From an uncultured Chthonomonadaceae bacterium (lineage in GTDB: Bacteria > Armatimonadota > Chthonomonadetes > Chthonomonadales > CAJBBX01), in NCBI GenBank assembly GCA_964396385.1, contig CAYNFH010000003.1:12178-76177 (forward strand): a stretch of 64,000 nt of DNA, written 5' to 3'. Both the position numbers and the translations under genes were made by a program. Under the pieces are notes generated by a model. The model was not told where the DNA came from. It ran no database searches and saw only the letters and a program-made list of their open reading frames with translations. This document shows positions 35,368 to 62,701 of this stretch, piece after piece; the stretch's first letter is position 1, and each line of letters starts with the position of its first letter.

Positions 35368-35377
35368 ATTGATAAAT

Positions 35378-35425: not shown

Positions 35426-35471
35426 GTCTACTGCCCCACAGCAGGCGGCAAAAGCGCTGACCCAGACGCCT

Positions 35472-35506
35472 GAAGGGCCGGCTGCAAATCAGGCAGCCGG
35501 CCCTTC
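35472..35506. terminator. 14-bp perfect stem-loop between convergent genes (bidirectional terminator candidate)
   Basis: GAAGGGCCGGCTGC-aaatcag-GCAGCCGGCCCTTC. Confidence 0.6.
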
Positions 35507-35554
35507 AATCTGTTGAGTGTTACCCCACTACGTGGAGCAGTTTCCGCGTACGCC

Positions 35555-35851: not shown

Positions 35852-35895
35852 TGCCCCTCACCTCGCTGTACAAGATTTCAACCGTATCTATTATA

Positions 35896-38889
35896 TCACG
35901 GGTGGGTGCGGCCCATACCGAGCGCGGACAATAAGCGCGTGACGTCGGCCACTTCGCGCTTCATACCGAGCTCCTGGAAGACCGAAACCGCCTCAGAATA
36001 TAACTTGTGCGCGGATGTCAAGTCGTCCTGGCCTGCAGCCACCCTTCCCAGGTCGCGCAAGCAGGTCGCTTCACTCTTGCGGCTGCCAATGCGCCGGCTG
36101 ATCTGCAGCGCCGTTTCCAGCGCCTGCCGCGCAGAGGCGTACTCCTTCTGTTCGCCCAAGACCCGGCCCAGCAACTCCAGATTCCATGCGATGCCTGCCT
36201 GATCGCCCAGCTCCACATACAGGTCTCGCGCCTCCTCCAGAGCGGAGCGCGCATTGGCATAGTTGCGCTCCCGAATGGCGACCAATCCCAGGCTGTTTAA
36301 GGACCACGCCTGGCCGGCCAGATTGCTATAGTCGCGGTAAATGGCCAGAGTGCGCAGGAAGGATGAGCGCGCCTTTTCTTCGTCAGCCTCTTCCAGGTAG
36401 GTGTATCCCAAGCAGCCCAGATTCCACGCCTCGTTCATCGCGTCGCCGCGCTTGCGGTGCAGCTTCAGCGCCTCCTCCATCAGTTCCCGTCCCAGGGCCA
36501 CCTGCCCCTGCTCCCGGGCCACATAGCCAAGCCGGCCCAGCGCCTCTGCCTCACCACGGCTATTGCCCAACTTACGGAAGAGCTCCACGGCCTGCTGCAG
36601 GCTCTTGCGCGCCTCTTCGTATCGGCCCTGGTTGGACACAACATCTCCGAGCCACAACAGCGCCTCCGCCTCCCCGTCAGCGCAGCCTGACTCCCGCGCA
36701 AGCGCGAGCGCCATCTGACAGTGGGTCGCGGCATCCTCGAAGTCGCCCTGGCATTGGGCCAGACCACCCAGTCCGCAGAGGGCGGCGATTCGTACGGCCG
36801 GTGGGGCTTGGGTTCCGGAGCGAGAAAGCGCTCGGCCGAGCCGGTCACGCCCCTCCCTTACGTGGCCGCGAAGCCACCAGAACCGATAGAGACTGGAAGC
36901 GAGCCACAGTCCCCACTCGGCCTCTGTTCCGTCCTGTTCGGCCCAGCTCAGGGCGGTCCGAAGGTTGTCATGCTCCTCCTCTAGCCGGTTGAGCCACTCT
37001 TGCTGCTTAGGTCCCATGATCTCGGCGGCGGCACGCTCTCCCACGCTCAAGAAGTAGGCGGCATGATTCCGCGGAATTCCCTCCGCTTCCGTGGGATCGG
37101 CTATGAGTTTGGCCCTGGCGTACTGACGGATGGTGTCCAGCAGCCGGTAGCGTGGCGCTCCGCCGTGAAGGTCGTAGACAACGAGGGACCTGTCGACGAG
37201 CGAGGTGAGTACGTCCTCCGTCTCCGGTACCTCCGTCACTTCACGTACGGCCTGCAGGTCCGCGCCTCCGGAGAACACGCACAGACGCCTTAGAAGCCGC
37301 TGCTCCTCAGCGGTGAGCTGATCGTAGGACCAGTCGATGAGCGCCTCCAGCGATTGGTGGCGCGGCATGGCGGAGCGGCTTCCGCCGCGCAGCAGCCTGA
37401 ACCGGTCACTCAGACCCGCGTGGATGGCTTCGACTGAAAGGGCCCGTATGCGCGCCGCCGCAAGCTCTATGGCGAGCGGGATCCCGTCGAGCTGCCGGCA
37501 GATGTCCGCCACGACCTCCGCGTTAGCGCCGGTCAGCCGCCAATCCGGCTGGACGCGTCGCGCCAGCTCAACAAAGAGGCTCACAGCCGGGTACTCCTGA
37601 ATCACCGCCAGCCAATCCTTGTCTTGCGCTGTTCGAGGTGGCCGGCGTTTTTGTCCGATGGCGACAAACGGACATGGCAGGCCGGGAACGCGCCACGTGA
37701 CCTCGCCGGTGACCCGGAGCGGCTCCCGGCTCGTGGCGAGGATTCGTACCTCCTGGCCGCAGCCCAACAGATCAGACACGACGTTGGCGCAGTCCTGCAG
37801 CAGGTGCTCGCAGTTGTCCAGGACAATCAGCAGTCGCCTGGTTGAAAGAAACTCCTTCAAACTCTCCAGCGGAGACCTGTTGGGCTGCTCCGCTACCCCA
37901 AGAGTCCTCGCGATAACCGGCACAATGAGAGCAGCATCTGCGAGCCCGGAGAGGTCCACGAACCAGGCGCCGTGCGTGTAAGCGGTGGCTGCCGTCTGAG
38001 CGGCGGCAATGGCCAGCCGGGTCTTGCCAATCCCGCCTGTACCGCACAAGGTGACCAGGCGCGCGGAGGAGATGCTGGCGACGATGTCCTTGACGGCCAA
38101 TTCACGGCCGACCAGACCGGTAAGTGGGTGCGGAAGTCGACCAGAGACCGCCGCGGAAAGCCGTGTGAGGGCAGGCACAGATTGGCGGTGCTTGAGACGT
38201 TCGTAAAGCGCGGCCGTCGCCGGGTCCGGAGCGGCATTCAGCTCCCGGTAGAGATAGAGACGAAAGTCCCGGTATACCTGCGCCAGTGCGGCGTGCTCAC
38301 TACGCTCCGCCAGCAGCTCCATCAGGGTGCGGAGCGCCGTCTCCCGGAGCGGGTCCACAGCCATTACACGCCGCAGGTACCCCGTAGCCGCCGAGGTGTC
38401 GCCCTGCGCTGCCTCGTCGGCAGCAAGCCGCTCCAGGGCGGCGACATAGGCCTGGGCGCGCAACTCACGCTCCGGGGTCACCCAGTCCGCGCCGAGGCCG
38501 GCCAGCAGCTCGCCGCGATAGATCTCGACCGCGCGATGAAGTGCCGGAGGATCGCTTCGGCTCACAAGACAGTCGAACTCTGTCACGTCGATCCACGCGC
38601 CGGAGGTTTCCAGGCGGATGCCGCGGATGGTGGGGGAGGATAACCGCGTGGCCTCCTCGCCAAGCGCGTCGCGCAGGTCGGTGAGATTGCGCCGGAGGTT
38701 ATAGCGAGACTGATCTGGGCGGCTGTCCGGCCAGAGCGTCTCGGCTAGCCATTCCCGGTCCAGTACCTGGCCGCCGCGCAGGGCCAGGAGCGCCAGCAAC
38801 TCCTGGCCCGCGCGCGAGCGCAGTGCGCCCATCGGGGCGCCATCAACCTGGACGTCGACCGGACCGAAGAGACGTATCTCAAGGGACAT
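35896..38889 (-). CDS. SARP/AfsR-type regulator: winged-helix BTAD N-terminus, NB-ARC (STAND) ATPase, C-terminal TPR array
   Basis: N-terminus is LEIRLFGPVDVQVDG...ELLALLALRGGQVLDREWLAETLWPD. P-loop is LVTLCGTGGIGKTRLA. Multiple TPR repeats of the form A...LG.V....G.Y..A follow. Start is ATG 38889, with an alternative GTG at 38910. Confidence 0.85.
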   Translation of the reverse strand: MSLEIRLFGPVDVQVDGAPMGALRSRAGQELLALLALRGGQVLDREWLAETLWPDSRPDQSRYNLRRNLTDLRDALGEEATRLSSPTIRGIRLETSGAWIDVTEFDCLVSRSDPPALHRAVEIYRGELLAGLGADWVTPERELRAQAYVAALERLAADEAAQGDTSAATGYLRRVMAVDPLRETALRTLMELLAERSEHAALAQVYRDFRLYLYRELNAAPDPATAALYERLKHRQSVPALTRLSAAVSGRLPHPLTGLVGRELAVKDIVASISSARLVTLCGTGGIGKTRLAIAAAQTAATAYTHGAWFVDLSGLADAALIVPVIARTLGVAEQPNRSPLESLKEFLSTRRLLIVLDNCEHLLQDCANVVSDLLGCGQEVRILATSREPLRVTGEVTWRVPGLPCPFVAIGQKRRPPRTAQDKDWLAVIQEYPAVSLFVELARRVQPDWRLTGANAEVVADICRQLDGIPLAIELAAARIRALSVEAIHAGLSDRFRLLRGGSRSAMPRHQSLEALIDWSYDQLTAEEQRLLRRLCVFSGGADLQAVREVTEVPETEDVLTSLVDRSLVVYDLHGGAPRYRLLDTIRQYARAKLIADPTEAEGIPRNHAAYFLSVGERAAAEIMGPKQQEWLNRLEEEHDNLRTALSWAEQDGTEAEWGLWLASSLYRFWWLRGHVREGRDRLGRALSRSGTQAPPAVRIAALCGLGGLAQCQGDFEDAATHCQMALALARESGCADGEAEALLWLGDVVSNQGRYEEARKSLQQAVELFRKLGNSRGEAEALGRLGYVAREQGQVALGRELMEEALKLHRKRGDAMNEAWNLGCLGYTYLEEADEEKARSSFLRTLAIYRDYSNLAGQAWSLNSLGLVAIRERNYANARSALEEARDLYVELGDQAGIAWNLELLGRVLGEQKEYASARQALETALQISRRIGSRKSEATCLRDLGRVAAGQDDLTSAHKLYSEAVSVFQELGMKREVADVTRLLSALGMGRTHP

Positions 38890-39140
38890 TTCAAGATGAA
38901 CCAGACGCACAATAGATGCGCCCTCGGTCCCGTGAGACGGCAGTGGTGGATGATGGTACCGAAGGGGCGGAACGTCCTCGGCAGCAACGGGCGTGTCACG
39001 ACCGCAGCATTATACGCCGTGTCTGTTCTCTTGATGTCTCCTTAACTCCTCCGTATTAGAACCAGGCGTGTGTACGGGTTGGACGTACGGACCCTGCCTC
39101 CGGCCGAGCTACAATTCCGGTCCAGCTACTCTGGGCTCGG

Positions 39141-39884
39141 TCATGGCTGTACAGTGAGGCCACCAAGGTTGACGCGGACGTCCGCCTTGTGCTCGAAGTC
39201 GCCGTTGGCGACAAGCGTGAAGACAAGGTCCTGGAGGGTCTTGCCCACCGGGATTGCAAAGAGGATTGGGAAGTCAACCTTGGAACCCGGGATTAGAAAC
39301 TTCGTCTGAACGGGCGCGCCAGCAAAGTCGTAACCTACGGGGCGGAATGCCTCGCCGTCGGTATCCGCGATGGCATTATGGACATCCGAGCCGACCCACA
39401 GGCGGGAGTCCATTTTACGGCCGTTTACCACGTGGCAGTCGACCAGAATGAGCCCGTAGCCTCTCTTCGGCGTGACCACCATCGTGTCTCGTTGAACGGA
39501 CACGGCATCCTCGTCGGCCAAGGTCACGTCGGGAGTCCGCATCGTGTAGCTTTCCACCTCCTTGACGCTCAGCACGGAGAACCTCCACCGGCCGTCGAAG
39601 AGCAGGTCGCCAATCTTGCCCCGAAGGCCCTCAACCGGATTGGCGCCGCCGGCGAGCTTCATCTCGAGGCCATCTGAGCGAGTTTCTACAACCATCTGAA
39701 GCGCTCGTGCCACATCGGCAACAGGAACATAGGCCTGGCCTCCGATGGTCCGCAAGCGCGCAGATGCCACCTTTCCATTGATGATAAGCCGTGTCCCCAC
39801 ACCTAAAGCGAAGGCGTAAGAGCCACAGCATGTGACTGCTCCTAAGATCAGCCAGCAGTGCGGCCGTTTGATTTGAATAGTCAA
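39141..39884 (-). CDS. Secreted protein with a copper-amine-oxidase-N-like stalk domain and a DUF4352-like beta-sandwich
   Basis: TTG start 7 nt after AAGGAG. LIINGKVASARLRTIGGQAYVPVADVARAL, then ...GLILVDCHVVNG...FPILFAIPVG. Confidence 0.6.
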   Translation of the reverse strand: MTIQIKRPHCWLILGAVTCCGSYAFALGVGTRLIINGKVASARLRTIGGQAYVPVADVARALQMVVETRSDGLEMKLAGGANPVEGLRGKIGDLLFDGRWRFSVLSVKEVESYTMRTPDVTLADEDAVSVQRDTMVVTPKRGYGLILVDCHVVNGRKMDSRLWVGSDVHNAIADTDGEAFRPVGYDFAGAPVQTKFLIPGSKVDFPILFAIPVGKTLQDLVFTLVANGDFEHKADVRVNLGGLTVQP

Positions 39885-39914
39885 CTTCTATCTCCTTGAA
39901 TGCATGCTCGACGC

Positions 39915-41669
39915 CTATTCCGATACTTCGTATGTGAATGTCCGCGCGCTCCACCGCGCGGTCCCGATTCGGATCGCCTTCAGCAGAGCCTGAAGGTGGG
40001 CTAACTCCGTCTTAGAGTAACGCGGGTCCACGGCGCCGGAGCCGCTGACCCAACCTGCCCCCACGGTAGGCTCCAGGGGCGGGAGCTGGTCCACCGACAC
40101 CAGAATGGCGCGAACCAGTGTGTGACCCAGTGGCGTCGCGCCGTTTACCTCAAACTCCTGGCGGGGCAGTCTGCTCTTTCCCGGGGGGAGCACGTTGCGG
40201 GGTTCGGCCGGCGCAGGCCAGACGAGCTGGACCACACCATCAGCGTCGTCCTGATCCAGCAGGTACAGGTAGCCTCCGGTCGGCGTGTCCACCTGCACGT
40301 GGAACAGCTCCCCACGCCGGTATCGGGGCTGTTCCGGGGCGATGCTCCAATCCACCGGCAGCGTACCGCTTCCGCTCGCCGCCATCCGGAACAGTCGGAG
40401 CACATACGCCTGGCGCCGCAAGTAGTCCGCCAATCCCGCGCTCATGAGCGACGGTACATCCGTGCCGGAGTACTCCGCCTTGCGGAACTCATCCACTTCA
40501 TCACCGGCTACCCGCGCATGCCATACGCGGCCGACGCGGCTGAGGGAGATGATGCGGTCGGGCCGGTCCCCGTACTGCGGCACGAGCGCAGCCTCCGGCA
40601 GCCGCTTCGACAAGAATGTCTGCCAGGCGGGGCCGGCCTGCGCCAGGAGCTTTTTGCGCTCGGCGTCCTCCCTTCCGGGAGGGGCATCGAGCCCTACCCG
40701 CAGCGTCTGCTCCTTGCGCCGGAGGGCGTCCACCATGCCGGCCGCTTGTGCCGCGACCGGTGGGGGCGGCGGAGGCGGTGGACCGGAGAGCATCGGGGAT
40801 CCGGAGCTTAGCAATGGCCTATCGAAGAGCTGCGTGAGCCCGGGGCGGTCCGGATAGGGCCGCAGGCCCGGCATGTAGCCCGGCCGGCTCGCGAACCGCT
40901 TCCGGACCTCCTCCAGCAGGGAGCGGTAGGTGGGCGCCTGCTTCTGCACGAGGGCGGTCATAGCGACGTTGCTCAACTCGTCCGAAAATGCGCCGGCCCA
41001 GGTGTTGGAGCTGAAGTCCACGCGCCACTCGTACGCACTGCCTTCGCTTCCGCAGGCGGCGAGCAGAATGCCCGGTCCGCGGTAGAGCTGCTTGCGGGGA
41101 ACACCGGGACGGGAGACGCAGCGGGGAACGTTCTTGTAGTACCGGTCCTCCCCGCGGAGGGGCGGCCGGACGTAGCAGGTGTCCAGGACGATCACCGGTG
41201 TCGCTTTGCTTCGGACGACCTGTTGCGCCCAGACCTCCACGGCCGACATCCGGACGTCTCGCGCGGCGCTCTTGGGCTGGCCGTCATAGGGAACCAGCGT
41301 GGGCTCCATCTCCTTTGTGGCTCGCGGCGCGGAGGCGGGGGGAGCGATGGAGCCCCGGCCGCTGAAATAGAACAGGATCTCATCGCCCTCTCGGGCCGAG
41401 TCCGCCAGCGCCTGGAGGCCCTTCCGGATGGCCGCGCCGGTCGCCGCGGATCCACGCAGCTCCTGGACGGCGCAGTGGCCGTACTCCAGCACGGCTCGCA
41501 TCTGCTTGAGGTCCGTCGCGGCCCCGTGAAGCTGGTCGTAAGAGTCGTGGATGAAGGGATAGGTGTCCAGGCCCACCAGCAGCGCACGGCTCGCGGCGTG
41601 TGTCTGCCGCGCCGCGAGCAGTATCGCCGCGGCCAGAACGGCGCGCCGGACGGCGAGCAGCCGGCTCAT
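39915..41669 (-). CDS. Secreted caspase-fold (peptidase C14-like) protein with catalytic His replaced by Arg (pseudo-caspase), plus a DUF4384-like C-terminal domain
   Basis: ALLVGLDTYPF...ILFYFSGRGS, where active homologs have GHG. VLDTCY retains the Cys. The C-terminal GELFHVQVDTPTGGYLYLLDQDDADGVVQLVWP is like DUF4384. The ATG overlaps the upstream stop. Confidence 0.7.
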   Translation of the reverse strand: MSRLLAVRRAVLAAAILLAARQTHAASRALLVGLDTYPFIHDSYDQLHGAATDLKQMRAVLEYGHCAVQELRGSAATGAAIRKGLQALADSAREGDEILFYFSGRGSIAPPASAPRATKEMEPTLVPYDGQPKSAARDVRMSAVEVWAQQVVRSKATPVIVLDTCYVRPPLRGEDRYYKNVPRCVSRPGVPRKQLYRGPGILLAACGSEGSAYEWRVDFSSNTWAGAFSDELSNVAMTALVQKQAPTYRSLLEEVRKRFASRPGYMPGLRPYPDRPGLTQLFDRPLLSSGSPMLSGPPPPPPPPVAAQAAGMVDALRRKEQTLRVGLDAPPGREDAERKKLLAQAGPAWQTFLSKRLPEAALVPQYGDRPDRIISLSRVGRVWHARVAGDEVDEFRKAEYSGTDVPSLMSAGLADYLRRQAYVLRLFRMAASGSGTLPVDWSIAPEQPRYRRGELFHVQVDTPTGGYLYLLDQDDADGVVQLVWPAPAEPRNVLPPGKSRLPRQEFEVNGATPLGHTLVRAILVSVDQLPPLEPTVGAGWVSGSGAVDPRYSKTELAHLQALLKAIRIGTARWSARTFTYEVSE

Positions 41670-43765
41670 CGAGCGACCCCCCGTCGATCGACTTCAATGT
41701 TCGCCAGCGCTGTATGGCGGAGGTGATCTCCCCGCACCGCGAAGCGGTAGAGCCGCCACAGGCTGCTGTTCACCAGATCGCTGACGGTCACGCCGCGCGT
41801 ACTGCACGCATGGACCACGGCGTGCTCCATGTTGCCGAAGCGGGGGTCCCGCAGCCGCCCCACGTAGATGCCGGTGTGGTGGTTCCCGTCGTACAGCCGG
41901 TAAGGGTTGTTCTGGAAGATGAGCCGGTCTCCCGGCTGGAGCGCGTCCAGGCTGGGGGGCGGTCCCAGGGAGACGGCGCGGCCGAAGATCTCCGCTGGAC
42001 CGCTCTTCCAGTGGACCACCGCACCGTAGTCCTCCATGTTATGGACCGGCGGCGAGGGCACGGGCAGACGTGCGCGCGCATAAACGGCGGCGACGAAGTG
42101 AGAGCAGTCGATGCCGCGGTTGAGGTCCGTGCCGCCCCAGCTATAGGGCGTGCCGATGTACTTCAGGCCCTCACGCGCCGCCATTATGCCTCCCGTCAGC
42201 GGGGGAGCGGAGGAAGGCGCGGTGGGGAACGTCGCCAGGTCCAGGCCCGACGCCCTGACATAACCCGTTATCTCGCCCGCGGTAACGCGGACCAACCCGG
42301 CTCCTGGCACCTTGCCGACCACCAGCACCAGCGAGTTCTTGGGCAGGGTGGTAAGCACCGGCGCACCCCTGCCGGTATGCTGGCGGATCTCCAGGGCAGT
42401 CCGCGCTTTGCCTACGGCCTCCAGCGGCTGCAGACTGTTGGGGCCGAGCGGCGGAGGCGGCGGAAATCGTACGGTGTTGGATGTCGGGAAGGGGCGCAGG
42501 AGGTTCACCACCTCCCCGGGCTCCAGCTCCGTGCCGGGCGGCAGCGCCGTGTTGGCGGCCAGGAACTGGGTAGCGGTGACGCGGCACCGTTTGGAGAGGG
42601 ATGCGACCGTCTCACCCGGCTGGACCGCGTAGAGGCCGGTCACCTGGTAGCCCGCAGACTTGGGACGCGTGCCGTCCTCCTGAAGGCCGGCGATGACTAC
42701 CACCGGAGCGCCGAGCGGCAGGCGGTCGTCCGGGCGGAGACCGTTCAGCGTCCTGAGCAGGCTAACCGGCATCCGCGCCGAGGCCGCGACCTCCTCCAGT
42801 CGCTGGCCCGGTTTCAACGCGATCGTCTCGAAGCGGATGGGCGAGGGGGTCACATGCTGGCGCAGTCCGACCACGTACCAGTCCCCTTCCTTAATCTCGC
42901 CGCGCCGGATGGCCGCGAGGGCGTCTCCGTCGGAAGGCTGAACTCTCGTGACAACCGCCGCATAGGATCCGTATGTATGGCCCAGCGCACCGTAGAAGCT
43001 CGTCTCCGCTCGCACGGGGGACTGCGGACCGCCGGCCCGCGGCGTGGGCTTGTCCGTGGCGCGCGGGTGGGTGACTGGCGCCCCGAATGCGTTGGTCCCG
43101 AGCAGCGGGACCGGGATCCCTTCACTCAGGGTGTATATCTGCACGAAGGCCGGAACGGGGGGACGCACCCAGAGCAGCAGTGTCTTGGCGGGAGGAGAGA
43201 CACCCATCTCCGGGAGGAGCGAGAAGTCCGGGAGCGCGCTAGCCCCGCCGGCCAGACCCAGCTTCTGCCTCCAGTAGGCCGGTGTGAAGAGGGAGATCTG
43301 GGCGCCTCCCACCTCCATGCCGATCCCCAGTAGCCCTGCCAGGCTCTCCAGGCCCACCATCATCGTCTCGCCGTGTCCAGGCAGCGCCATCCTGCGGGGC
43401 GGGGCGGACAGGTACACCCGGCGTGTTGCTTCCCCCTCACGACCTGGACTCACCTCCGCGTAGCTGCCCGATTGGTCCGCCGCCGGAAGCTGGATGACGA
43501 CCTTGCCGCCGACCAGGACTTTACAGAAGGTGGGGTCCGTCGCGTCCAGATTGGCTTGCCCGTGGGTGAGCACGCTCAGCGCGCGCTCCAGGGGCACGCG
43601 ATAGTCGTTCAGCTCGATGGCGACCGGCCCAATGTCTACCGGCTGCTCATCCATCCGCACGACGATATGGGGCAGCAGCCGGAGATCGGCGCGCGCGGAA
43701 CGGAGCAGCGCGCCGGCCAGCGCCATGCTGCCGAGCAGGAGCGCAGCGCGATAGCCCGGTCTCAC
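41666..43765 (-). CDS. Secreted cell-wall hydrolase: LysM repeats, SH3b-like domain and NlpC/P60 cysteine peptidase
   Basis: LysM-like segments are IALKPGQRLEEVAASARMPVSLLRTLNGL and YAVQPGETVASLSKRCRVTATQFLAANTAL. NlpC/P60 region is GTPYSWGGTDLNRGIDCSHFV...HHTGIYVG. The GTG overlaps the upstream stop. Confidence 0.85.
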   Translation of the reverse strand: MRPGYRAALLLGSMALAGALLRSARADLRLLPHIVVRMDEQPVDIGPVAIELNDYRVPLERALSVLTHGQANLDATDPTFCKVLVGGKVVIQLPAADQSGSYAEVSPGREGEATRRVYLSAPPRRMALPGHGETMMVGLESLAGLLGIGMEVGGAQISLFTPAYWRQKLGLAGGASALPDFSLLPEMGVSPPAKTLLLWVRPPVPAFVQIYTLSEGIPVPLLGTNAFGAPVTHPRATDKPTPRAGGPQSPVRAETSFYGALGHTYGSYAAVVTRVQPSDGDALAAIRRGEIKEGDWYVVGLRQHVTPSPIRFETIALKPGQRLEEVAASARMPVSLLRTLNGLRPDDRLPLGAPVVVIAGLQEDGTRPKSAGYQVTGLYAVQPGETVASLSKRCRVTATQFLAANTALPPGTELEPGEVVNLLRPFPTSNTVRFPPPPPLGPNSLQPLEAVGKARTALEIRQHTGRGAPVLTTLPKNSLVLVVGKVPGAGLVRVTAGEITGYVRASGLDLATFPTAPSSAPPLTGGIMAAREGLKYIGTPYSWGGTDLNRGIDCSHFVAAVYARARLPVPSPPVHNMEDYGAVVHWKSGPAEIFGRAVSLGPPPSLDALQPGDRLIFQNNPYRLYDGNHHTGIYVGRLRDPRFGNMEHAVVHACSTRGVTVSDLVNSSLWRLYRFAVRGDHLRHTALANIEVDRRGVAR

Positions 43766-45114
43766 CGGTTCTCTCCCTTGCCGATGACGCTGAAGGTGAC
43801 CTCGGACGTGTAGAACACGCCGGCGGGGGCGCGGGCCTCCCGGAGCCGCTTCATTCCCTGGAAGCGCACTCCTTCGTCACCTACGTTGGCAGCGTCTATG
43901 ACCGCGGCCGCCTTCTCCCTCGTGGTGAAGAGAAGTGCCTTCACGTGCTCCAGCCCTTTCTCATCCGCCGTGTAGTACTCGCTGGGTGGCGGCGGGAGCC
44001 TCTTGACGTCGCCGACCTCTACCTGGGCTGTGCTCACGTCTCCCTTTGGAAACAGGCGATAGACCTTGCCGTCCACGTTGCGGTCCAGCACCACCAGGAA
44101 GCCGGTGACGCCGATTTTCACGTCCAGGCGGATGGGCTCGCCCAGCTCAAAGGCGGTGTGGTCCGGGATCAGGCTGAGGGAGAGCGCCGCGGGATCCACG
44201 TGGTCGCTGTTAAAGTCTTGCCAGAGGGTCGGGGGATCCTGCTCTGTGCTGGAGACCGTCGCGAGACGGTCCTTGGAGTCGAACAGCGACGCCTGCACAT
44301 AGGCCGGGGAGATAGTCGGGTGCTGGTGGAACCGGTCGCCGAGCGTCTCCGCGACTTTCCCCTTCACCTCCGCGTGGAGGGTTCCCCACGGGAGGCTGCT
44401 GTCCTGCTTCAGCTCTTCCACCAGATCACTGGTGAAGACGCCGTGGTACTCGCCCTTGAATCGGCCCTCCAGCGCCTGCTCGTTGCCCTGCGCCGCGGTC
44501 CAGTAGCATACGTTGCTGTCCTTCACCAGGTCGCTCTGAGTGTCCTGATGGCTCGCCGGCCGGGCCGTGATGCTCTTGGAGCCTGCCGGCGCATAGTAGC
44601 GCGGCCGGAAGTCGCGCCGGTCCTCCGTAGAGATGAATTTACGCATGGCGCCGGAGAAGCAGGAGTCCAGAACCACTGTACGGGCGCGGCCGGGGACAGC
44701 GCGCACGGTCTGGTAGAGCTCTTCCGGCGTAATCCCGTTGCCCTGTGCCGTGGAGTCGGTAGGCATCAGCTCCATGCGCGGCTCATCCCGGCCGTGGCCC
44801 GCGAAGTAGAGGAGAAAGCGCTCACTCGGGCCCACGCGCGCGCCAATAGAGGAGATGTTCGCCAGGATGGCCGCGCGCGTCGCCTGCTCGTTGAGCAGCA
44901 GCGTGACCTTGAAGCCGAGGTCCTTCAAGGCTCCGGCCATCAGGCGGGCGTCTCCCTCGCAGCCTCGCAGCGTGTTAGCACGGGCGAGTTGGTACCGCTG
45001 TACCCCGATCACCAGGGCTTGATCCTCGCTTTGCGCAGGCGCCTGCGCGGCAAGCATCGCAAGCAGCAGGAACGCCGTAACAGCGGCGGATCGCATGGAC
45101 GTTAAGCGTTTCAT
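43762..45114 (-). CDS. Secreted caspase-family (peptidase C14) protease with a DUF4384-like C-terminal domain; catalytic dyad intact
   Basis: Start MKRLTSMRSAAVTAFLLLAMLAAQAPAQ at 45114. Motifs: ALVIGVQRY, LLYFAGHGR, VLDSCFSG and GEPIRLDVKIGVTGFLVVLDRNVDGKVYRLFP. The track ORF to 45741 is an extension. Confidence 0.85.
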   Translation of the reverse strand: MKRLTSMRSAAVTAFLLLAMLAAQAPAQSEDQALVIGVQRYQLARANTLRGCEGDARLMAGALKDLGFKVTLLLNEQATRAAILANISSIGARVGPSERFLLYFAGHGRDEPRMELMPTDSTAQGNGITPEELYQTVRAVPGRARTVVLDSCFSGAMRKFISTEDRRDFRPRYYAPAGSKSITARPASHQDTQSDLVKDSNVCYWTAAQGNEQALEGRFKGEYHGVFTSDLVEELKQDSSLPWGTLHAEVKGKVAETLGDRFHQHPTISPAYVQASLFDSKDRLATVSSTEQDPPTLWQDFNSDHVDPAALSLSLIPDHTAFELGEPIRLDVKIGVTGFLVVLDRNVDGKVYRLFPKGDVSTAQVEVGDVKRLPPPPSEYYTADEKGLEHVKALLFTTREKAAAVIDAANVGDEGVRFQGMKRLREARAPAGVFYTSEVTFSVIGKGENR

Positions 45115-45192
45115 GCGCGGCTCTTCGCGTGGCGTTTGGGCTATTCCTCGCCCCTTCCAGCCCTTTCGGAGGGATCTGCGCAAATGGGCCGG

Positions 45193-45216
45193 TTTCGGCA
45201 ACGCTTTCGGCAACGG
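45193..45216. promoter_or_regulatory. Tandem direct repeat TTTCGGCAACG(C/G) x2 in the divergent caspase-operon / CIS promoter region
   Basis: ggTTTCGGCAACGCTTTCGGCAACGGtgg, about 80 nt upstream of the first CIS gene. Confidence 0.4.
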
Positions 45217-45297
45217 TGGGCCTGTAGACTGGCCGTGGTCAGGACGCAAGAGCCCCTGAACGTCCGACAACGCCCTGGAAGGCAAAACGATCCGCCC

Positions 45298-46518
45298 ATG
45301 ATCCACGACGTGGACGAGACCCTGCGCAAGCTGCTGGTGGAGGAGCTGGCTCGCATTCCCGGCGACCCCGTGCGTCACCCCGATCAGATTGGGTTCGACC
45401 CGCCGTCGGTGGCGGAGGCCATCCAGGATCGGGCGGCTCGCGTAAACCTGTACCTGCACGACGTCCGGGAGAACCGCGACCTGCGGGACGAGGGGTTCGT
45501 GTCGGTCCCCGGTCCACCGGACAGAAGCGCCGTAGGCCGCCGCCAGACGGGGGTGCGGCTGGACCTTTCCTATCTCATCACCGCGTACGCGGGCGATGAC
45601 GCCGCGGTGGAGCACCGGCTGCTGTCCGATATTCTCATCGTCCTGCTGCGCACTCTGTCGGCGCCCACCAAGTACCTCAGCGGAGAGCTGGAGGGGCTGG
45701 GCTCCAACGCCGTCCTGCTGACCGTGGCCCAGCCGGACCACATCGCTAACAGCGATCCCGCGTCCTTATGGCAGGCGCTCGGCGGAACGCTCCGGCCGGC
45801 CGTGAGCCTCGTGGTCACGACGCCGTTCGACCCGTTCGCTACCGTCTGGGCCAGGGCGGTGAAGGAGGCGATCCTGGGGGTAGGTCAGGGTCTTCCCCCC
45901 GACGGCCCCAGGCGTCCGCTGGGGATGACCGGCGTGTGGGTGAGTGCGGCCGGCGTGGCGCTGAACCAGGAGACGGAGAGACCGCTGGAGGGTGTGCGGG
46001 TAACCGTCTCCGGCCGCCGCGAGTCCGTGCACACCGATTCCCACGGGTTCTTCCACCTACTCAACCTGCCGGCCGGCCCGTATACCCTCCAGTTCGAGAA
46101 GAAAGGCTACCAGGCGCAGTCGCTGGCCGTGTACGCGCCACAGCTCGGACGACCGGACCAACTGGAGCCCACCGTCGCCGCGCTGCGTGCACTCAGCCCG
46201 GAGGAGCGCGCTGCGCAGGCTGCGGGTCAGGCGGCCGCCCGGGCCACGTCGGCCGTTATCGAGAGAGACCGTACCTACCGCGTCTCCCTCACCGGCACGC
46301 TCACCTTCGCCGATGGCCGGCCCGCCGCCAACATACCCGTCCGTGTTGGACGCCACACCACGACCACGGACCTTTCCGGAGTCTACTACTTCCTGGACCT
46401 TCCGCCGGGAGATCACACGGTCTATGCGGACGTACCCGGCCAGGGTCCACTCAAGGCGGTGCCCGGAGAGGCCACTCCCATCCTTTCCGGCCCGCCAGCC
46501 GGCCGCTCTCGTTCATAG
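45298..46518 (+). CDS. DUF4255 (Pvc16/Afp16 N-terminal-like, tail cap/terminator) fused to two carboxypeptidase-regulatory-like beta-sandwich domains
   Basis: MIHDVDETLRKLL...VNLYLHDVRENRDLR...LDLSYLITAYAG are DUF4255 hallmarks. Then VRVTVSGRRESVHTDSHGFFHLLNLPAGPYTLQFEKKGY and a second TTTDLSGVYYFLDLPPGDHTVYA. Confidence 0.8.
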   Translation: MIHDVDETLRKLLVEELARIPGDPVRHPDQIGFDPPSVAEAIQDRAARVNLYLHDVRENRDLRDEGFVSVPGPPDRSAVGRRQTGVRLDLSYLITAYAGDDAAVEHRLLSDILIVLLRTLSAPTKYLSGELEGLGSNAVLLTVAQPDHIANSDPASLWQALGGTLRPAVSLVVTTPFDPFATVWARAVKEAILGVGQGLPPDGPRRPLGMTGVWVSAAGVALNQETERPLEGVRVTVSGRRESVHTDSHGFFHLLNLPAGPYTLQFEKKGYQAQSLAVYAPQLGRPDQLEPTVAALRALSPEERAAQAAGQAAARATSAVIERDRTYRVSLTGTLTFADGRPAANIPVRVGRHTTTTDLSGVYYFLDLPPGDHTVYADVPGQGPLKAVPGEATPILSGPPAGRSRS

Positions 46519-46551
46519 CGCGGTTCCCTTTCTCGTTTGCAGGAGGACACG

Positions 46552-48405
46552 ATGCCTGAATACCTAGCACCCGGCGTATTCGTTGAAGAGATTGACAACG
46601 GCAGCAAGCCCATAGAAGGCGTGGGCACAAACACGGTCGCCTTCGTGGGCTTCGCGAAGAGCGGGGACTTCAACACCCCCACCTTTATCTCCAACTGGAC
46701 GCAGTTCTGCCAGAGCTTCGGCGAGGAGGAGAACGCGCTTGTTCGCGCCCTCTCCGACGAGCTGGGAATCACCGGCCCGGAGGTCGTAGCCGCCAAGCGC
46801 GCCTCGCGCAAAGGCTGGATAGAGTACGCGCAGACTGCGGTCCAGAGTGCTATCCGCGAGCGCCCGGCCAATGCCAAGGGTAGCAAGAGCTGGCAGGACT
46901 TCCTGCGCACCCACCAGATTCCCATGAGCGGCCTGCCATACGCGGAGGGCAGCTACCTGGCGCACACGGTCCGCGGCTACTACGACAACGGCGGAGGGCG
47001 CGCGTACATTGTGCGCATTCCACGCCGCCAGGATGTGGAGTCGCTGCTTTATAAGGTCAATGGCCAGGCCGACAGCAAGAAGCTGGCCCCGCCTCCACCA
47101 CTCACTATCGGTCCCTATACTTTCAAGGCCGCGAAGACCGCCGCAGACCCAGTTCAGATCGAGGTGGAGCACGTTGGGGACGGAGAGGAGTTCCGGATCA
47201 AGCTGTCTCAGGGCGACGCCTCGGAGTCCTATGGGTACGGCAAGGACAAGCCCTTGACTCCGGACGGGCTGGCCCAGGCGCTCACTCGCTCCAAGCTGGT
47301 GGACGTACAGACGGCGGACGCCGCCACCATGACGCGGCCGGAAGCTCGCATCTATACCATTGAGGCCGCGAGCCTCGTCCCGGTTGCTGCTTCCGGCGCA
47401 CCCGAGTCGCTCTCCGTCAGCGCGCTGGCAGCGCTCAAAGCGGAGGATTTCATTGGGGACGAGGCGCAGCGCACCGGCGTTAACGGGCTCGCGCTGCTGG
47501 ACGACGTCAACGCGGTCTGCGTGCCGGACCTCATGGCGGGCCTCTATCAGCGGCAGAGTGTAAACGGTAACGGCGGACCGGCGGTGGAGACGCTCGCACT
47601 GAACGACGCGCGCCGACAGGCGATCCTCGACGCTCAGTGCGCCGTGGTGGCCTATTGCGAGCGCTCCGCGGACCGAATGGCTATCCTGGACCCGCTGCCA
47701 GGATTGACGCCGCAGCAGATGCGCGACACCACGCTCAATACCCCCTATAACTGCGATCACGGCCAGGCGGCCATTTACTATCCCTGGATCAGGATCACGG
47801 ACCCGATGCGCCGGGGCCAGCAGATGATGTGCCCACCCTGCGGCCACGTGGCGGGCGTCTGGGTGCGGGCGGCGGTTGAGCGCGGAGTACACAAGGCACC
47901 GGCCAACGAGGCGCTGCTCGGAGCCGTGGCCCTGGAGGTGGGGATTACGAAGGGCGAGCAGGAGATCCTCAACCCGGAGGGCATCAATGCTATCCGTGCG
48001 TTCCCCGGCACCGGCATCCGCATCTGGGGCGCCCGTACGCTGGCGACCGTGGGCAACCCCTCCTGGAAGTACGTCAACGTCCGACGGTTGTTCAACTACC
48101 TGGAGAAATCCATGGAGCGCGGGCTCCAGTGGGTGGTCTTCGAGCCAAACGACTCGGACCTGTGGGGCCGGGTGCGCCGAAACATCGCCGCCTTCCTGTG
48201 GACCGAGTGGAAGGAAGGAAAGCTGTTCGGAACGACTGCGGCGGAGGCGTTCTACGTCAAGTGCGACTCGGAGACAAATCCCCAGGAGATGATCGATCTC
48301 GGCAGGCTGTACGTGGAGATCGGGGTCAACCCCGTCAAGCCGGCGGAGTTCGTGATTGTGCGCATCGGGCAGTGGTCGGCCAGCAGCAGCATCGCAGAAG
48401 CGTAG
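46552..48405 (+). CDS. Contractile tail sheath protein
   Basis: AGGAGG SD. MPEYLAPGVFVEEID is the canonical sheath N-terminus. Also GINAIRAFPGTGIRIWGARTL...NVRRLFNYLEKS...FVEF-type C-terminal motifs. Confidence 0.92.
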   Translation: MPEYLAPGVFVEEIDNGSKPIEGVGTNTVAFVGFAKSGDFNTPTFISNWTQFCQSFGEEENALVRALSDELGITGPEVVAAKRASRKGWIEYAQTAVQSAIRERPANAKGSKSWQDFLRTHQIPMSGLPYAEGSYLAHTVRGYYDNGGGRAYIVRIPRRQDVESLLYKVNGQADSKKLAPPPPLTIGPYTFKAAKTAADPVQIEVEHVGDGEEFRIKLSQGDASESYGYGKDKPLTPDGLAQALTRSKLVDVQTADAATMTRPEARIYTIEAASLVPVAASGAPESLSVSALAALKAEDFIGDEAQRTGVNGLALLDDVNAVCVPDLMAGLYQRQSVNGNGGPAVETLALNDARRQAILDAQCAVVAYCERSADRMAILDPLPGLTPQQMRDTTLNTPYNCDHGQAAIYYPWIRITDPMRRGQQMMCPPCGHVAGVWVRAAVERGVHKAPANEALLGAVALEVGITKGEQEILNPEGINAIRAFPGTGIRIWGARTLATVGNPSWKYVNVRRLFNYLEKSMERGLQWVVFEPNDSDLWGRVRRNIAAFLWTEWKEGKLFGTTAAEAFYVKCDSETNPQEMIDLGRLYVEIGVNPVKPAEFVIVRIGQWSASSSIAEA

Positions 48406-48430: not shown

Positions 48431-48865
48431 ATGGCTGAAGTGATTGGGGCATTGAGGTGGTACCTCGAAGTCGACGGCATAACGGAAGGAATCTTTCGGG
48501 AGGTGACGGGGCTCGATTCCGAGACGGAGGTGATCGAGCACCGGGTCACGGGCAAGAACGGCAACCTGATAGTCCACAAGGTGCCGGGTGCGCTCAAGTG
48601 GTCCAACGTCACCCTCCGCCGCGGAATTACGGACGACCGGAAGCTGCACGACTGGCGCAAAAAGATCGAGGACGGGCAGATCGAGGCGAACCGCAAGAAC
48701 GGGACGATCACCTGCTTCGCCCCGAACGGCGATGTAGTCGCAAAGTACTCGTTCAAGAAGGGCTGGCCGTGTAAGTGGCGGGGGCCGGGACTGGACGCCA
48801 CCAAGAACGAGTTGGCCATTGAAGAGCTGGAGCTGGCCCACGAGGGGCTGGAGCGCCAGCAGTAA
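48431..48865 (+). CDS. Tail tube protein (gp19/Afp1-like)
   Basis: FREVTGLDSETEVIEHR...KVPGALKWSNVTLRRGI...WPCKWRGPGLDA...IEELELAHEGL. Confidence 0.88.
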   Translation: MAEVIGALRWYLEVDGITEGIFREVTGLDSETEVIEHRVTGKNGNLIVHKVPGALKWSNVTLRRGITDDRKLHDWRKKIEDGQIEANRKNGTITCFAPNGDVVAKYSFKKGWPCKWRGPGLDATKNELAIEELELAHEGLERQQ

Positions 48866-48876
48866 TGAGGCCCTAG

Positions 48877-49221
48877 ATGAACAAGGCATCCGGCCTACAA
48901 ACCGAGTTCGAGTTCACCCTTCCTAAGGGATATGTGGGACCGGACGGTACGCTGCACCGGAAGGGCAGGATGCGCCTCGCCACGGCCATCGACGAGATCG
49001 CTCCGCTGCGGGATCCGCGCGTCCGCTCCAATGAGGCGTACCTGGTGATCATCCTGCTCGCCAGGGTGATCACCCAGCTAGGGACGCTCGACGGCATCGA
49101 CACCGGCGTGATCGAAGGGCTGTTTTCTGCCGACCTTGCCTACCTCCAGGACTTCTACCGGAAGATCAACGACGTGGATGGAGGTGAGGCCGCGGGGGAG
49201 GACGGCCAGACGGGGGAATAG
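48877..49221 (+). CDS. Tail-assembly-chaperone-like protein (P2 gpE-like)
   Basis: FEFTLPKGYVGPDGTLHRKGRMRLATAIDEIAPLRDPRV..., an acidic tail, and a position directly after the tube gene. Confidence 0.55.
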   Translation: MNKASGLQTEFEFTLPKGYVGPDGTLHRKGRMRLATAIDEIAPLRDPRVRSNEAYLVIILLARVITQLGTLDGIDTGVIEGLFSADLAYLQDFYRKINDVDGGEAAGEDGQTGE

Positions 49222-58343: not shown

Positions 58344-58823
58344 ATGTTAGTTGCCACACGTCCTTCGTCCAACGGCAGCCAGGCGCCGGCGGAGCAGCCG
58401 AGATCAAAGGACCCGCATCTGGGGCTGCGGTTCTGGGTGCAGCTCGGCCAGGTGGAGGTGGCGGGCTTTCAGGAGTGCTCCGGCCTGGAGATTGAAACCG
58501 AGGTCTTCGAGTACCGCGAGGGCGGCCTGAACACCTATGTCCACAAGCTGCCTGTGCGCGCCAAGTACAAGAACATCACTCTCAAACGCGGCCTGGACGA
58601 GAACCAGGACCTCTATAGCTGGTACGTCAAGGCCATGAACAACGACATGGGCCGGCAGAACATCTCCATCATCGTCTATGACTCGCTCGGCAAGCAGGTG
58701 GAGAAGTGGGACCTCCAGCGGGCATGGCCGTGCAAATGGACGGGACCCGAGCTAAAGGCTGAACACGGGGCGGTCGCGGTGGAGACGGTCGAGATAGCCC
58801 ACGAGGGACTGCTGCCCCGGTAA
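58344..58823 (+). CDS. Second tail tube-family protein (Afp5/Pvc5-like)
   Basis: FQECSGLEIETEVFEYREGG...KLPVRAKYKNITLKRGL...WPCKWTGPELKA...VETVEIAHEGL, parallel to the first tube protein. Confidence 0.85.
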   Translation: MLVATRPSSNGSQAPAEQPRSKDPHLGLRFWVQLGQVEVAGFQECSGLEIETEVFEYREGGLNTYVHKLPVRAKYKNITLKRGLDENQDLYSWYVKAMNNDMGRQNISIIVYDSLGKQVEKWDLQRAWPCKWTGPELKAEHGAVAVETVEIAHEGLLPR

Positions 58824-58869
58824 GGAAGAGCGCCGCTCCCCTTTTGCGGCGCAACACACGGAACACGAC

Positions 58870-61800: not shown

Positions 61801-62001
61801 GCTCGGCAGAAGGCAATTCCCGTAGTGCAGCGGGAGGCGTCCGAGTCGCCGGCGCCTACCGGGAGCAAGGCGCATTCGGCCGAGGCGGCCAAGGGCGATA
61901 CGGGCGACGCGGCCAACCAGGTGCAACTTCTGGCTACGGAGGTGTGGTCTATCCTGAAGCGGCGTCTGGAGATAGAGGGCGAGCGCCGGGGTCGGCGGTG
62001 A
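58870..62001 (+). CDS. 1043-aa Arg/Pro/Ala/Ser-rich low-complexity protein; positional candidate for tail-length (tape-measure-like, Afp14-type) protein
   Basis: Uninterrupted 3.1-kb ORF between the tube-2 and LysM genes. Only the C-terminal 25 aa look ordered. Confidence 0.55.
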   Translation: MRKEAQPAAMLKVPLSVRRTAAFGRMVAGRVGSTWSPVAARVRMLSRTSRARLAGWRLDRLASWTNPFLHGFITRGMSRFGLLERARPALDLYLSRPAIPMVSWLGVAAPQPERFEPEPFELSRSFGSPGAYTAAGAADSTRGGPVGLPIRAALPARMRPAPAPEGQAVLPRDVGVRPFAPHSVSSPQGALRHGQGAHLRTSLASQIARSHRLITRAPVRSSHVAAALKSGTNPSRPVVRAPSSRVHRSAGMASVRGGIAPPRLAAPSILRGRGLPRPVTPAGQVGSVAARTRPRQDHAAGKRILPRGQTGHPSTLAFLPLSASPTAAPDATPDGSPFRHRPQPDSADSPSLRGTEHLAEMGEIRGQSLEGAPGAALPFPEGLSRILAFVNGQVPRAAGSSGPVMENRSGGVKESGRGSEGLLRRRGELPVLGMTDRGFARSGGTGELREAKQVPPSVLPSAHRAFTRLEMASRYDRYSGGTAFKSAGGQVPRFPGITSWYVPVLSHTASHLPHGVPRNSPHGAAILDPREAGGIAPRLLKNVTQGGGGKPGQSALVSRAVAAPRVPGLHIVARAPRLTPGPAASRVTRSIGAARASGLDAPPPPRTPQKQTVAHRQGAIGPMAAVVARRYPALADRAPEHAVVRPVIRPFLAEIWAKSDGVTRAIRGPGPRRPDLRSGDGATFTPARAWESRPDPAVDGFLPLSIPSHGLWTQADVPDPVDAGWQSSAHGPAKPVTAWTIGPQPEAVRQRPTGPARSAPVRPVGTPRVMRSARGVATRPTQSPAPAASRSARSRSAIPDLRSRLSPALARLVTSRAQRGGHADPAVAPVFSSPLMAAGGGRTVGLPAQLSAHILGPPRRLPKIGESPKPTGASLPIARGPTRPQPFPDLVTGESAPATRPIGRRDRANVMLVDSLKPAHSLPAMAERLPMAPVGAARPTGAKSAGTTGETVARTPGISARAAAPALWMPTLPALSRARQKAIPVVQREASESPAPTGSKAHSAEAAKGDTGDAANQVQLLATEVWSILKRRLEIEGERRGRR

Positions 62002-62040
62002 TTGCGGCTCTGCGGCGCTTCCTGGCACGGAGAACGAGAC

Positions 62041-62688
62041 ATGGGACTTACGAAAGCTACCATCACAAACCTGGAAACGAACGAGCAGATTTCGTGCAAG
62101 TTCAACCCCACCGAGTACACGATTAACAAGGAGAACTCCTGGAAGAGCAAGCCGGTGGTGGGAAAGAACGTGCCCAAGCTGGAGTTCACGGGCGGTGGCG
62201 CGCAGATACTGACCATGGAGCTCTTCTTCGACGCCCACGAGGATAAGGGCGATGTCCGCGTCGATGTGAAGAAGCTGATGGCGCTCACCCTCATCCACCC
62301 GAAGCCGAAGAACGACAAGACCAAGCGCTCGCGGCCACCCCTATGCATCTTCCAGTGGGGACCCAACTGGGAGTTCAAGGCGGCCGTCACCAAGCTTTCG
62401 GTCAAGTACACGCTCTTCCATCAAGACGGCACGCCTGTCAGGGCGACGGCCAACATTACCTTCCAGGAGGCGGAGGACGAGAAGGAGCAGAAGAAGACCA
62501 ACCCCACCTCCTACTCGGAGCCCGGCCGCAAGCGTAGGGAGGTCCGGCCGCACGATACCCTGGCGCTGATCGCCTTTGAGGAGTTCGGCGACCCCACCTT
62601 GTGGCGGCAGATCGCCGATGAGAACCGGCTGGACGACCCCCTCTCGCTGCATGCCGGCCAGATCATCTCTATCCCGCCGCGCGCGTAA
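62041..62688 (+). CDS. Tube-initiator-like protein with a C-terminal LysM domain (Afp7/Pvc7-like)
   Basis: FNPTEYTINKENSWK...LEFTGGGAQILTMELFFD is tube-fold-like. LysM region is HDTLALIAFEEFGDPTLWRQIADENRLDDPLSLHAGQIISIP. Confidence 0.8.
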   Translation: MGLTKATITNLETNEQISCKFNPTEYTINKENSWKSKPVVGKNVPKLEFTGGGAQILTMELFFDAHEDKGDVRVDVKKLMALTLIHPKPKNDKTKRSRPPLCIFQWGPNWEFKAAVTKLSVKYTLFHQDGTPVRATANITFQEAEDEKEQKKTNPTSYSEPGRKRREVRPHDTLALIAFEEFGDPTLWRQIADENRLDDPLSLHAGQIISIPPRA

Positions 62689-62701
62689 CCGTGGAATACC
62701 C

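Follow-up and report, generated by a model that had tools for sequence, protein, structure and literature searches.

A conserved caspase, NlpC/P60 hydrolase and pseudo-caspase gene triad accompanies a contractile injection system lineage in Armatimonadota

The 64,000-nucleotide stretch of DNA analysed here (the window; positions 12,178 to 76,177 of contig CAYNFH010000003.1, assembly GCA_964396385.1, from an uncultured Chthonomonadaceae bacterium of the phylum Armatimonadota) carries three adjoining genes beside a contractile injection system (CIS) cluster. They encode an active C14 caspase (Casp1), an NlpC/P60 peptidoglycan hydrolase, and a caspase-fold protein that has lost its catalytic histidine (the pseudo-caspase), and are together termed the triad. 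The order active caspase-hydrolase-second caspase is identical in all 19 loci from which the triad was recovered. Wherever the flanks were usable (16 loci), CIS-cluster genes lie within 10 kb of it, the gene order taking at least five forms; four loci were too short for the linkage to be judged. The association of the triad with the CIS is well supported. Tentatively, and at somewhat short of an even chance, we read the triad as an optional periplasmic accessory of one Armatimonadota CIS lineage with a putative role in lysis or particle release, a reading suggested by sequence and by analogy with known systems.

The original prediction had proposed a co-occurrence check, which proved positive for the triad next to CIS genes in Armatimonadota, the only phylum in which the triad was recovered. 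Unmistakable CIS structural genes are present in 13 of the 16 informative loci. The other three (L001, L006 and L017, L-numbers denoting the loci compared here) carry CIS-linked accessory genes only, namely the inner-membrane protein genes c3 and c4 in L001 and L006, and an afp16-like gene in L017. Gene arrangements were derived by clustering all open reading frames (ORFs) of the loci, by Pfam scans, and by a Baseplate_J search for longer contexts. In the commonest (arrangement A), found in eight Fimbriimonadales species and the closed genome CP129494.1, all genes lie on one strand. The 5' part consists of eCIS_core, tube, a large ORF, CIS_tube/LysM, VgrG, sometimes PAAR, gp25, Baseplate_J, Tail_P2_I and DUF4159, and the 3' part of c3, c4, Casp1, hydrolase, pseudo-caspase and a gene for an exported protein, c2, often followed by a third caspase, also exported and bearing PEGA and WD40-like repeats. 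The spacing between c4 and Casp1 is 52-79 bp in this arrangement, and L001 and L006 retain the same order from c3/c4 onward, up to their contig ends.

The remaining arrangements place the triad differently with respect to the same set of genes. In Chthonomonas (arrangement B), lipoproteins, an outer-membrane protein (OMP) beta-barrel and an exported WD40 protein precede the triad and c2, which are followed by the sheath, the tube and onward genes. In the window (arrangement C), the triad and the sheath half of the CIS are divergently oriented. On the L010/L172 contig (arrangement D), gp25, Baseplate_J, P2_I, DUF4159, c3, c4, two lipoproteins, an OMP, a WD40-caspase, the triad and c2 meet a convergent CIS_tube/LysM-VgrG half, leaving the triad sandwiched between two CIS halves. 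In L017 (arrangement E), the triad and c2 are followed by a Pvc16_N-CarboxypepD_reg gene on the opposite strand. Most often, then, the triad directly follows c3 and c4, and its outer flanks differ from locus to locus. Given these differing flanks and the divergence of the hydrolase orthologues (only 22-61% identity; 12 lineages at a 60% threshold), retained genome synteny is a poor explanation for the linkage. A 30-kb cluster plus its flanks would make up about 1-2% of such genomes, and repeated chance re-association following rearrangement is unlikely.

The hydrolase had been described as a LysM-SH3-NlpC/P60 enzyme, and this architecture is borne out; a signal peptide is present. Pfam recognises LysM (36.4 bits) and NLPC_P60 (39.3 bits against a cut-off of 23); SH3_3 scores 17.2 bits, under the Pfam cut-off, and the SH3b domain is assigned from an AlphaFold2 (AF2) model. 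This model, made with a 32-sequence alignment, is confident and compact (pLDDT 83, pTM 0.79) and is made up of a beta-rich N-domain, a pair of LysM domains, an SH3b domain and the NlpC/P60 domain. In Foldseek searches, the C-terminal half matches SH3b+NlpC/P60 D,L-endopeptidases (6BIM, 6BIQ, 4R0K and MepS) and phage lysins, with E=7e-9 against 6BIM and a TM of about 0.8 against MepS-like domains. The family-specific N-domain of about 300 aa (approximately residues 30-310) gave no structural match in Foldseek. Among orthologues, C554 and H630 never vary, position 652 is occupied by H or D, and the enzyme is predicted from sequence and fold to be a catalytically competent endopeptidase. The family is small: full-length relatives number six among 5.8 billion proteins, and a search of 1.84 billion proteins with the 370-aa N-terminal region gave 44 cluster representatives, nearly all of them 620-800 aa in length. 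A scan of one genome per species yielded 14 full-length loci, all in Armatimonadota (Fimbriimonadales, Fimbriimonas, Chthonomonas and unclassified members), and a scan of viral contigs found no full-length homologue. The catalytic domain matches PHROG 329, annotated as a "minor tail protein".

Casp1, as had been proposed, is a secreted C14 caspase with a DUF4384 domain. Both Pfam domains are above cut-off (Peptidase_C14 at 74.9 bits against 21.4, DUF4384 at 29.9 against 27), and the protein starts at an ATG at 45114 with the N-terminus MKRLTSMRSAAVTAFLLLAMLAAQAPA/QS, a canonical signal peptide. The His/Cys dyad is intact in the window protein (FAGHG and LDSCFSG), and both residues are kept in 15 of 15 orthologues, in the motifs FAGHG and LD[SA]C, predicting a catalytically competent enzyme. 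The closest solved sequence is GSU0716 (PDB 3BIJ). Two residues before the catalytic Cys, an Asp is conserved among the orthologues; in metacaspases, by analogy, an Asp at that site points to a basic P1 residue (Arg or Lys). On account of this Asp, specificity for Arg or Lys is proposed for Casp1, an active orthocaspase that probably cleaves after one of these residues.

The second caspase-fold protein had been thought to carry an Arg in place of the catalytic His next to a DUF4384 domain, and its motif FSGRG confirms this. Pfam assigns Peptidase_C14 (52.1 bits) and DUF4384 (31.7 bits), a signal peptide is present, and the window protein keeps the catalytic Cys in LDTCY. The His is missing from all 14 orthologues, being Arg in 12 and Leu in two, and in nine of the 14 the Cys has been lost as well, the position being occupied by Cys, Ser or Ala across the set. 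This 584-aa protein thus combines a C14 domain with loss of a catalytic residue across its orthologues and, as the His is absent from all 14, represents a long-maintained dead protease rather than a recent mutation, judged from these residues to have lost activity before the lineages diverged. Cyanobacterial pseudo-orthocaspases are defined by His to Tyr and Cys to Ser replacements (PMC6426788). That type was ruled out for the present protein, in which the substitutions are Arg or Leu and Cys, Ser or Ala. The cyanobacterial proteins likewise have a C14 fold with a dyad that was lost and kept in the lost state (PMC6426788), but they are cytoplasmic, whereas the pseudo-caspase is exported, paired in an operon with an active paralogue, and variable in its retention of the Cys.

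In the window, the triad forms part of a run of four minus-strand ORFs with a regulator gene downstream, and the positions of the original prediction hold for all of them (Table 1). The GTGA and ATGA start/stop overlaps and the 30-nt gap that link the four genes are read directly in the sequence, as is an AAGGAGA ribosome-binding site within that gap, ahead of the TTG start of the fourth gene, p4. The overlaps indicate that the Casp1, hydrolase and pseudo-caspase genes are translationally coupled. All three triad proteins carry Sec signal peptides, which are conserved across orthologues. The 184-bp divergent region said to be shared by the cassette and the CIS cluster was likewise recovered, and a 230-bp gap separates p4 from the regulator gene.

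Table 1. Coordinates of the triad, its neighbours and the CIS cluster in the window, and of c3/c4 in compared loci
Feature	Coordinates	Strand	Basis
Casp1, C14 caspase with C-terminal DUF4384, 450 aa	43762..45114	-	Pfam, signal peptide, dyad motifs
LysM-SH3b-NlpC/P60 hydrolase, 699 aa	41666..43765	-	Pfam, AF2 model, Foldseek
Pseudo-caspase, C14 fold + DUF4384, 584 aa	39915..41669	-	Pfam, FSGRG motif
p4, exported protein, 247 aa	39141..39884	-	ORF, TTG start with ribosome-binding site
SARP (Trans_reg_C+BTAD)-NB-ARC-TPR STAND regulator	35896..38910	-	Pfam
Divergent intergenic region, 184 bp, between Casp1 and first CIS gene	45115..45298	.	sequence
First CIS gene, Pvc16_N (afp16-like cap) fused to CarboxypepD_reg	45299..46518	+	Pfam
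CIS sheath	46537..48405	+	Phage_sheath_1, Phage_sheath_1C
gp19-family tube protein	48431-48865	+	Pfam
Small conserved CIS protein	48877-49221	+	
Second Pvc16_N cap protein	49387-50016	+	Pfam
CIS AAA+ ATPase	50013-52031	+	Pfam
Putative effector/cargo, 753 aa, SsdA_C-like single-strand DNA deaminase toxin domain	52651-54912	+	Pfam
Putative effector/cargo, 980 aa, eCIS_core (DUF4157) domain	54977-57919	+	Pfam
Second gp19 tube gene, 1043-aa ORF, CIS_tube/LysM baseplate hub, VgrG-like spike	58344..64000	+	Pfam
c3/c4	L007:3563-8265, L169:14412-19093, L167:14878-19738, L170:14755-19333, L172:7490-12120		

The claim that p4 is the fourth gene of the operon stands in so far as the gene is contiguous and its product exported, but p4 is not the conserved fourth gene: elsewhere that position is held by c2, an exported protein unrelated to it. 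For p4, a CuAO-N/DUF4352-like assignment had been suggested; no Pfam family matches at E<=0.01 (the only hit being DUF7055 at E=0.063), and no PDB profile matches. An hhalign comparison of p4 with the start of the hydrolase N-domain aligned 32 columns only, at 12% probability, and the idea that p4 is a diverged copy of c2 was rejected at an hhalign probability of 0.07%. Homologues of p4 (41-43% identity, with signal peptides) are found between an afp16-CarboxypepD_reg gene and a sheath gene in two metagenomic CIS loci with no triad in view (L100:3241-3960 and L086:2065-2853). As these homologues are CIS-locus genes, p4 ties the window operon to the CIS.

The neighbouring cluster had been called a CIS, and Pfam matches to Pvc16_N, sheath, gp19 tube, AAA, eCIS_core, CIS_tube/LysM and VgrG show it to be genuine. 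The cluster is Afp/PVC-like, with baseplate J, gp25 and P2_I genes seen in orthologous clusters; in the window it runs past the window end, placing its 3' end beyond view. Homologues of its first gene occur in L017 and L100. The sheath is 56% identical to that of Chthonomonas (L015, L016), and its C-terminal part matches the Capsulimonas sheath at 79% identity over 271 aa. The tube and small CIS protein genes (48431..49221) have counterparts of 67-89% identity in related CIS loci, and the hub ORF at 62002-62688 is 54-65% identical to those of L010, L087, L100, L167, L169 and L170. From the hub identities and the close match of the sheath C-terminal part to Capsulimonas, the sequences indicate a single CIS lineage throughout the compared loci. 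Outside the phylum, relatives of its Baseplate_J protein include those of Streptomyces and other Actinobacteria, at 35-41% identity.

Whether the triad is present or not, c3 and c4 come after Baseplate_J, Tail_P2_I and DUF4159 in every case in this CIS lineage. Both proteins lack a signal peptide and have a single strong transmembrane (TM) helix at their centre; the N-terminal region of c3 is long and Pro-rich, and in c4 the helix is followed by TIG domains. A cytoplasmic N-terminus, one TM helix and a periplasmic C-domain give both a topology resembling that of CisA. CisA is a membrane adaptor without which the Streptomyces CIS neither fires nor brings about cell death (PMC12237407). DUF4159 proteins have already been listed as enriched in extracellular contractile injection system (eCIS) loci (Geller et al., 2021). 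Additional exported caspases also flank the triad (L007:14863-17499, also in L008, L011 and L012; L010:5488-8322; L015:5224-8244). They are either active caspases of 770-880 aa with PEGA and WD40-like repeats or a WD40-repeat protein of 944 aa that ends in a Peptidase_C14 domain, such that three or four periplasmic caspase-fold proteins are encoded around the CIS in these lineages. The OMP beta-barrel genes in the loci indicate that the organisms are diderm.

Under the reading favoured here, the module would be expressed together with the CIS and would cut the producer's own peptidoglycan. The dead paralogue could serve as partner, decoy or scaffold for the active caspase, and the pair might restrain the hydrolase until it is needed, as the RipA zymogen requires proteolytic processing. 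Wall breakdown would then complete CIS-linked cell death, free the particles, or both, and the module would substitute for the holin-lysin-spanin cassette of tailocins. In a more specific form, which we consider unlikely, the triad would act as a "caspase switch": upon CIS assembly or firing, sensed through the periplasmic domains of c3 and c4, the caspase pair would cleave the hydrolase N-domain after R252 and unleash lysis. R252, in a VRAET motif inside the N-domain, is the sole candidate cleavage residue in the hydrolase and a candidate P1 site for an Arg/Lys-specific caspase. The position is K or R in 78% of 32 homologues and adjoins a disordered loop of the N-domain. Particles of eCIS are freed by lysis of the producer, and some loci lack any lysis cassette (PMC10598620). 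In Roseiflexus, the CIS is cytoplasmic, and contracted particles were seen in lysed cells only (PMC12998442); eCIS loci of Roseiflexus also encode the afp16-CarboxypepD_reg fusion beside the sheath (Geller et al., 2021, supplement). Since this fusion is common to both systems, the behaviour of the Roseiflexus CIS is consistent with a lysis role.

Several observations weigh against such a role. The CIS of Capsulimonas corticalis, a cultured species with a complete genome, has no triad in view (L167, AP025739.1, 7300293-7322404), the locus running from the sheath gene to DUF4159-c3-c4 and then to Pvc16_N-AAA. Contig Ga0172368_10000415 likewise carries a complete CIS, and the stretch between 10 kb upstream of the sheath and 3 kb past c4 contains no triad. 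As CIS of the same lineage occur without it, the triad is optional or dispensable for this CIS type and not a universal release route. The closest sheath relatives also have no triad within 10 kb of the sheath, most of these loci stopping before the 3' end of the cluster, and all triad loci come from one phylum, meaning that independent events are fewer than loci. Across all eCIS, Peptidase_C14 occurs in only five operons (odds ratio 3.0, q=0.26, not significant), and NLPC_P60 is not enriched (odds ratio 0.48; Geller et al., 2021, supplement). Genes resembling holins or spanins were not seen, which leaves the breach of the outer membrane unaccounted for: the window operon encodes four exported proteins only, with no small multi-TM ORF among them, and PHROGs gave no holin or spanin match for the triad, p4, c2, c3, c4 or the DUF4159 protein. 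With respect to proteolytic activation, no conserved basic residue was found in the flexible linkers of the hydrolase.

The regulator downstream of p4 had been described as a 997-aa SARP-NB-ARC-TPR protein; its identity holds, and its length is 1004 aa from a GTG at 38910. Pfam scores are 56.1 bits for BTAD, 25.5 for NB-ARC and 123.8 for TPR_12, with Trans_reg_C at 24.5 bits, just under the cut-off of 26.2, giving the winged helix, BTAD, NB-ARC and TPR parts of a SARP-type STAND architecture. An AfsR orthologue was considered and rejected (NCBIfam 144 bits against a cut-off of 1430). The inclusion of this regulator in the cassette does not hold up, as no homologue was found in any other triad locus, and the protein fits better as a regulator specific to this genome that acts on the CIS island and stands outside the module. 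BTAD/SARP-TPR regulators are a "shell" component of eCIS, with an odds ratio of 28 (Geller et al., 2021; PMC8213781), and the published lists include Trans_reg_C-BTAD-TPR proteins of about 1050 aa (PMC8213781 and supplement). As BTAD/TPR regulators are general eCIS neighbours, the CIS operon is as likely a target as the cassette. In three bioreactor metagenome loci of a different CIS lineage (L146:3440-4210, L147:2872-3642 and L148:1144-1914), a gene with a SARP domain that shares 30% identity with the regulator N-terminus lies upstream of Pvc16 and the sheath, which fits BTAD as a general eCIS regulator. The window also encodes a regulator in which GerE (LuxR-type) is joined to NHL/SGL beta-propeller repeats (25528-27159), about 18 kb from the CIS and separated from it by housekeeping genes; GerE is the most common eCIS-associated regulator (Geller et al., 2021). 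Within the divergent region, a tandem 12-nt direct repeat, CGGTTTCGGCAA / CGCTTTCGGCAA, is found at 45190-45213, with a third CTTTCGG at 45163-45169, 29 nt upstream of it; the repeat may be an operator, or it may have arisen by chance. No sigma-70-type consensus promoter was found in 45115-45298, and no Rfam family in 35000-46000.

Other roles for the triad are conceivable, of which local remodelling or anchoring of the envelope seems rather improbable to us. The module, together with c3 and c4, would open or tether the peptidoglycan where a docked CIS fires, with the caspases processing envelope proteins, much as type VI, type III and type IV secretion systems and flagella use dedicated wall hydrolases. 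The position of the triad directly after DUF4159-c3-c4 would suit such a role, since c3 and c4 span the inner membrane, as would the lipoproteins, OMP beta-barrel and exported WD40-caspase that elsewhere lie between c4 and the triad, and LysM and SH3b would fix the enzyme to the wall. The wall hydrolases known from secretion systems, however, are small single enzymes without protease partners, and the conserved pair of an active and a dead caspase suggests tight control of a dangerous activity. In addition, Capsulimonas and L170 have c3 and c4 without a triad, implying that docking needs no triad. It is distinctly unlikely that the triad is instead a hitch-hiking envelope-maintenance operon for cell separation, wall turnover or surface-protein processing, linked to the CIS through co-inheritance or stress regulation only. 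LysM-NlpC/P60 enzymes are typical cell-separation autolysins, the data come from a single phylum, NLPC_P60 is unenriched in eCIS operons overall, and the CIS of some genomes works without the triad. Yet the link is kept in all 16 informative loci despite hydrolase identities of 22-61%, at least five gene orders and differing flanks, and the commonest order sets the triad on the same strand 52-79 bp after c4. The placement of the triad between two CIS halves in L010/L172 argues in the same direction, and some 44 sequence clusters are unexpectedly few for a housekeeping autolysin.

Two further proposals concern the target of the enzymes and their control. It is very improbable that the triad proteins are a weapon against target cells, whether as secreted toxins or as particle-associated enzymes resembling tail-associated lysins or the toxins encoded at the 3' end of eCIS clusters. 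The commonest arrangement does put the triad at the 3' end, the usual site of eCIS toxins (PMC8213781). The PHROG match of the hydrolase catalytic domain is to a tail protein family, and EAT10 is a known eCIS toxin that hydrolyses peptidoglycan. Sec signal peptides, though, would send the triad proteins to the periplasm, whereas CIS assembly and cargo loading are established to be cytoplasmic; a toxin role would not readily explain why a dead protease is conserved, and no eCIS_core/DUF4157 domain is attached to any triad protein. The version put forward in the original prediction, in which the STAND protein is a dedicated switch that turns on the protease and hydrolase cassette, carries little probability. 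The regulator gene follows p4 on the same strand after a 230-bp gap, the tandem 12-nt repeat could be the operator of a winged-helix activator, and SARP genes stand upstream of other CIS loci (L146-L148). Against this, homologues of the regulator are absent from all other triad loci, BTAD/TPR regulators are general near eCIS, such that the CIS operon is an equally likely target, and the repeat is a short two-copy match that chance could explain.

The earlier statement that this association had not been described agrees with the literature searched here, in which we found no work joining contractile injection with Armatimonadota or with orthocaspases or metacaspases; large eCIS surveys leave caspases unmentioned in their main text. 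The component families and CIS-linked lysis cassettes are already known, and it is the triad as a CIS accessory that is undescribed. Among eCIS "shell" and "cloud" genes, BTAD regulators, afp16-CarboxypepD_reg fusions and DUF4159 are common to those loci and to the ones compared here, and the triad itself is not described there (Geller et al., 2021). In Dechloromonas aromatica, afp16 is directly followed by a Peptidase_C14 gene and by an LCAT+CHAT (caspase-fold) gene of 5.4 kb (Daro_3616-3618; Geller et al., 2021, supplement), and caspase-fold proteases may thus recur beside eCIS outside Armatimonadota.

Among known particles, R- and F-type tailocins (pyocins) likewise have a peptidoglycan hydrolase within a phage-tail-like cluster, as part of a holin-endolysin-spanin cassette; it is co-regulated with the particle cluster, lyses the producer and frees the particles (PMC10598620). 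Unlike the tailocin enzyme, the triad hydrolase is Sec-exported, multidomain and flanked by an active and an inactive caspase, with no holin or spanin, and its part in lysis is a proposed one. The Streptomyces CIS with CisA is of a related lineage, has been linked to regulated cell death, and likewise has cluster-encoded bitopic proteins whose cytoplasmic N-terminus is long and partly disordered and whose C-domain is periplasmic (PMC12237407). It differs in that a caspase/NlpC-P60 module has not been reported there, and Armatimonadota are diderm. A parallel for the control of the hydrolase would be RipA of Mycobacterium tuberculosis, an NlpC/P60 zymogen that is a substrate of the periplasmic protease MarP (PMC6628586). 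In that hypothetical parallel, an exported NlpC/P60 endopeptidase is gated by its N-terminal region and a dedicated exported protease. MarP, however, is a serine protease that is not operon-linked to RipA, and RipA acts in cell separation, without a CIS. Bacterial gasdermin operons, reportedly described by Johnson and colleagues in 2022, are said to place a caspase-like (C14/CHAT) protease next to the cell-killing executor that it is thought to activate. The triad likewise sets a caspase-fold protease beside a presumed executor, although its proteins are periplasmic, the executor would be a wall hydrolase, and no gasdermin match was found. A gasdermin or known defence system was rejected as an assignment, PADLOC giving a generic caspase model for the two caspases and nothing for p4, c2 or the hydrolase.

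To our knowledge, only tailocins have a known lysis cassette among such particles, and Streptomyces-type CIS cause cell death. The triad is a compact, conserved candidate for how cytoplasmic CIS particles kill or leave their producer, and Capsulimonas corticalis, cultured and carrying the same CIS lineage with no triad in view, provides a natural comparison strain. If the favoured reading is true, exported bacterial caspases and the long-conserved pseudo-caspase would gain a defined partner in a peptidoglycan hydrolase. Protease-activated executors of cell death would then extend beyond gasdermins to a caspase that activates a wall hydrolase, and the "caspase switch" would supply the missing lysis or release step for a lineage of cytoplasmic CIS.

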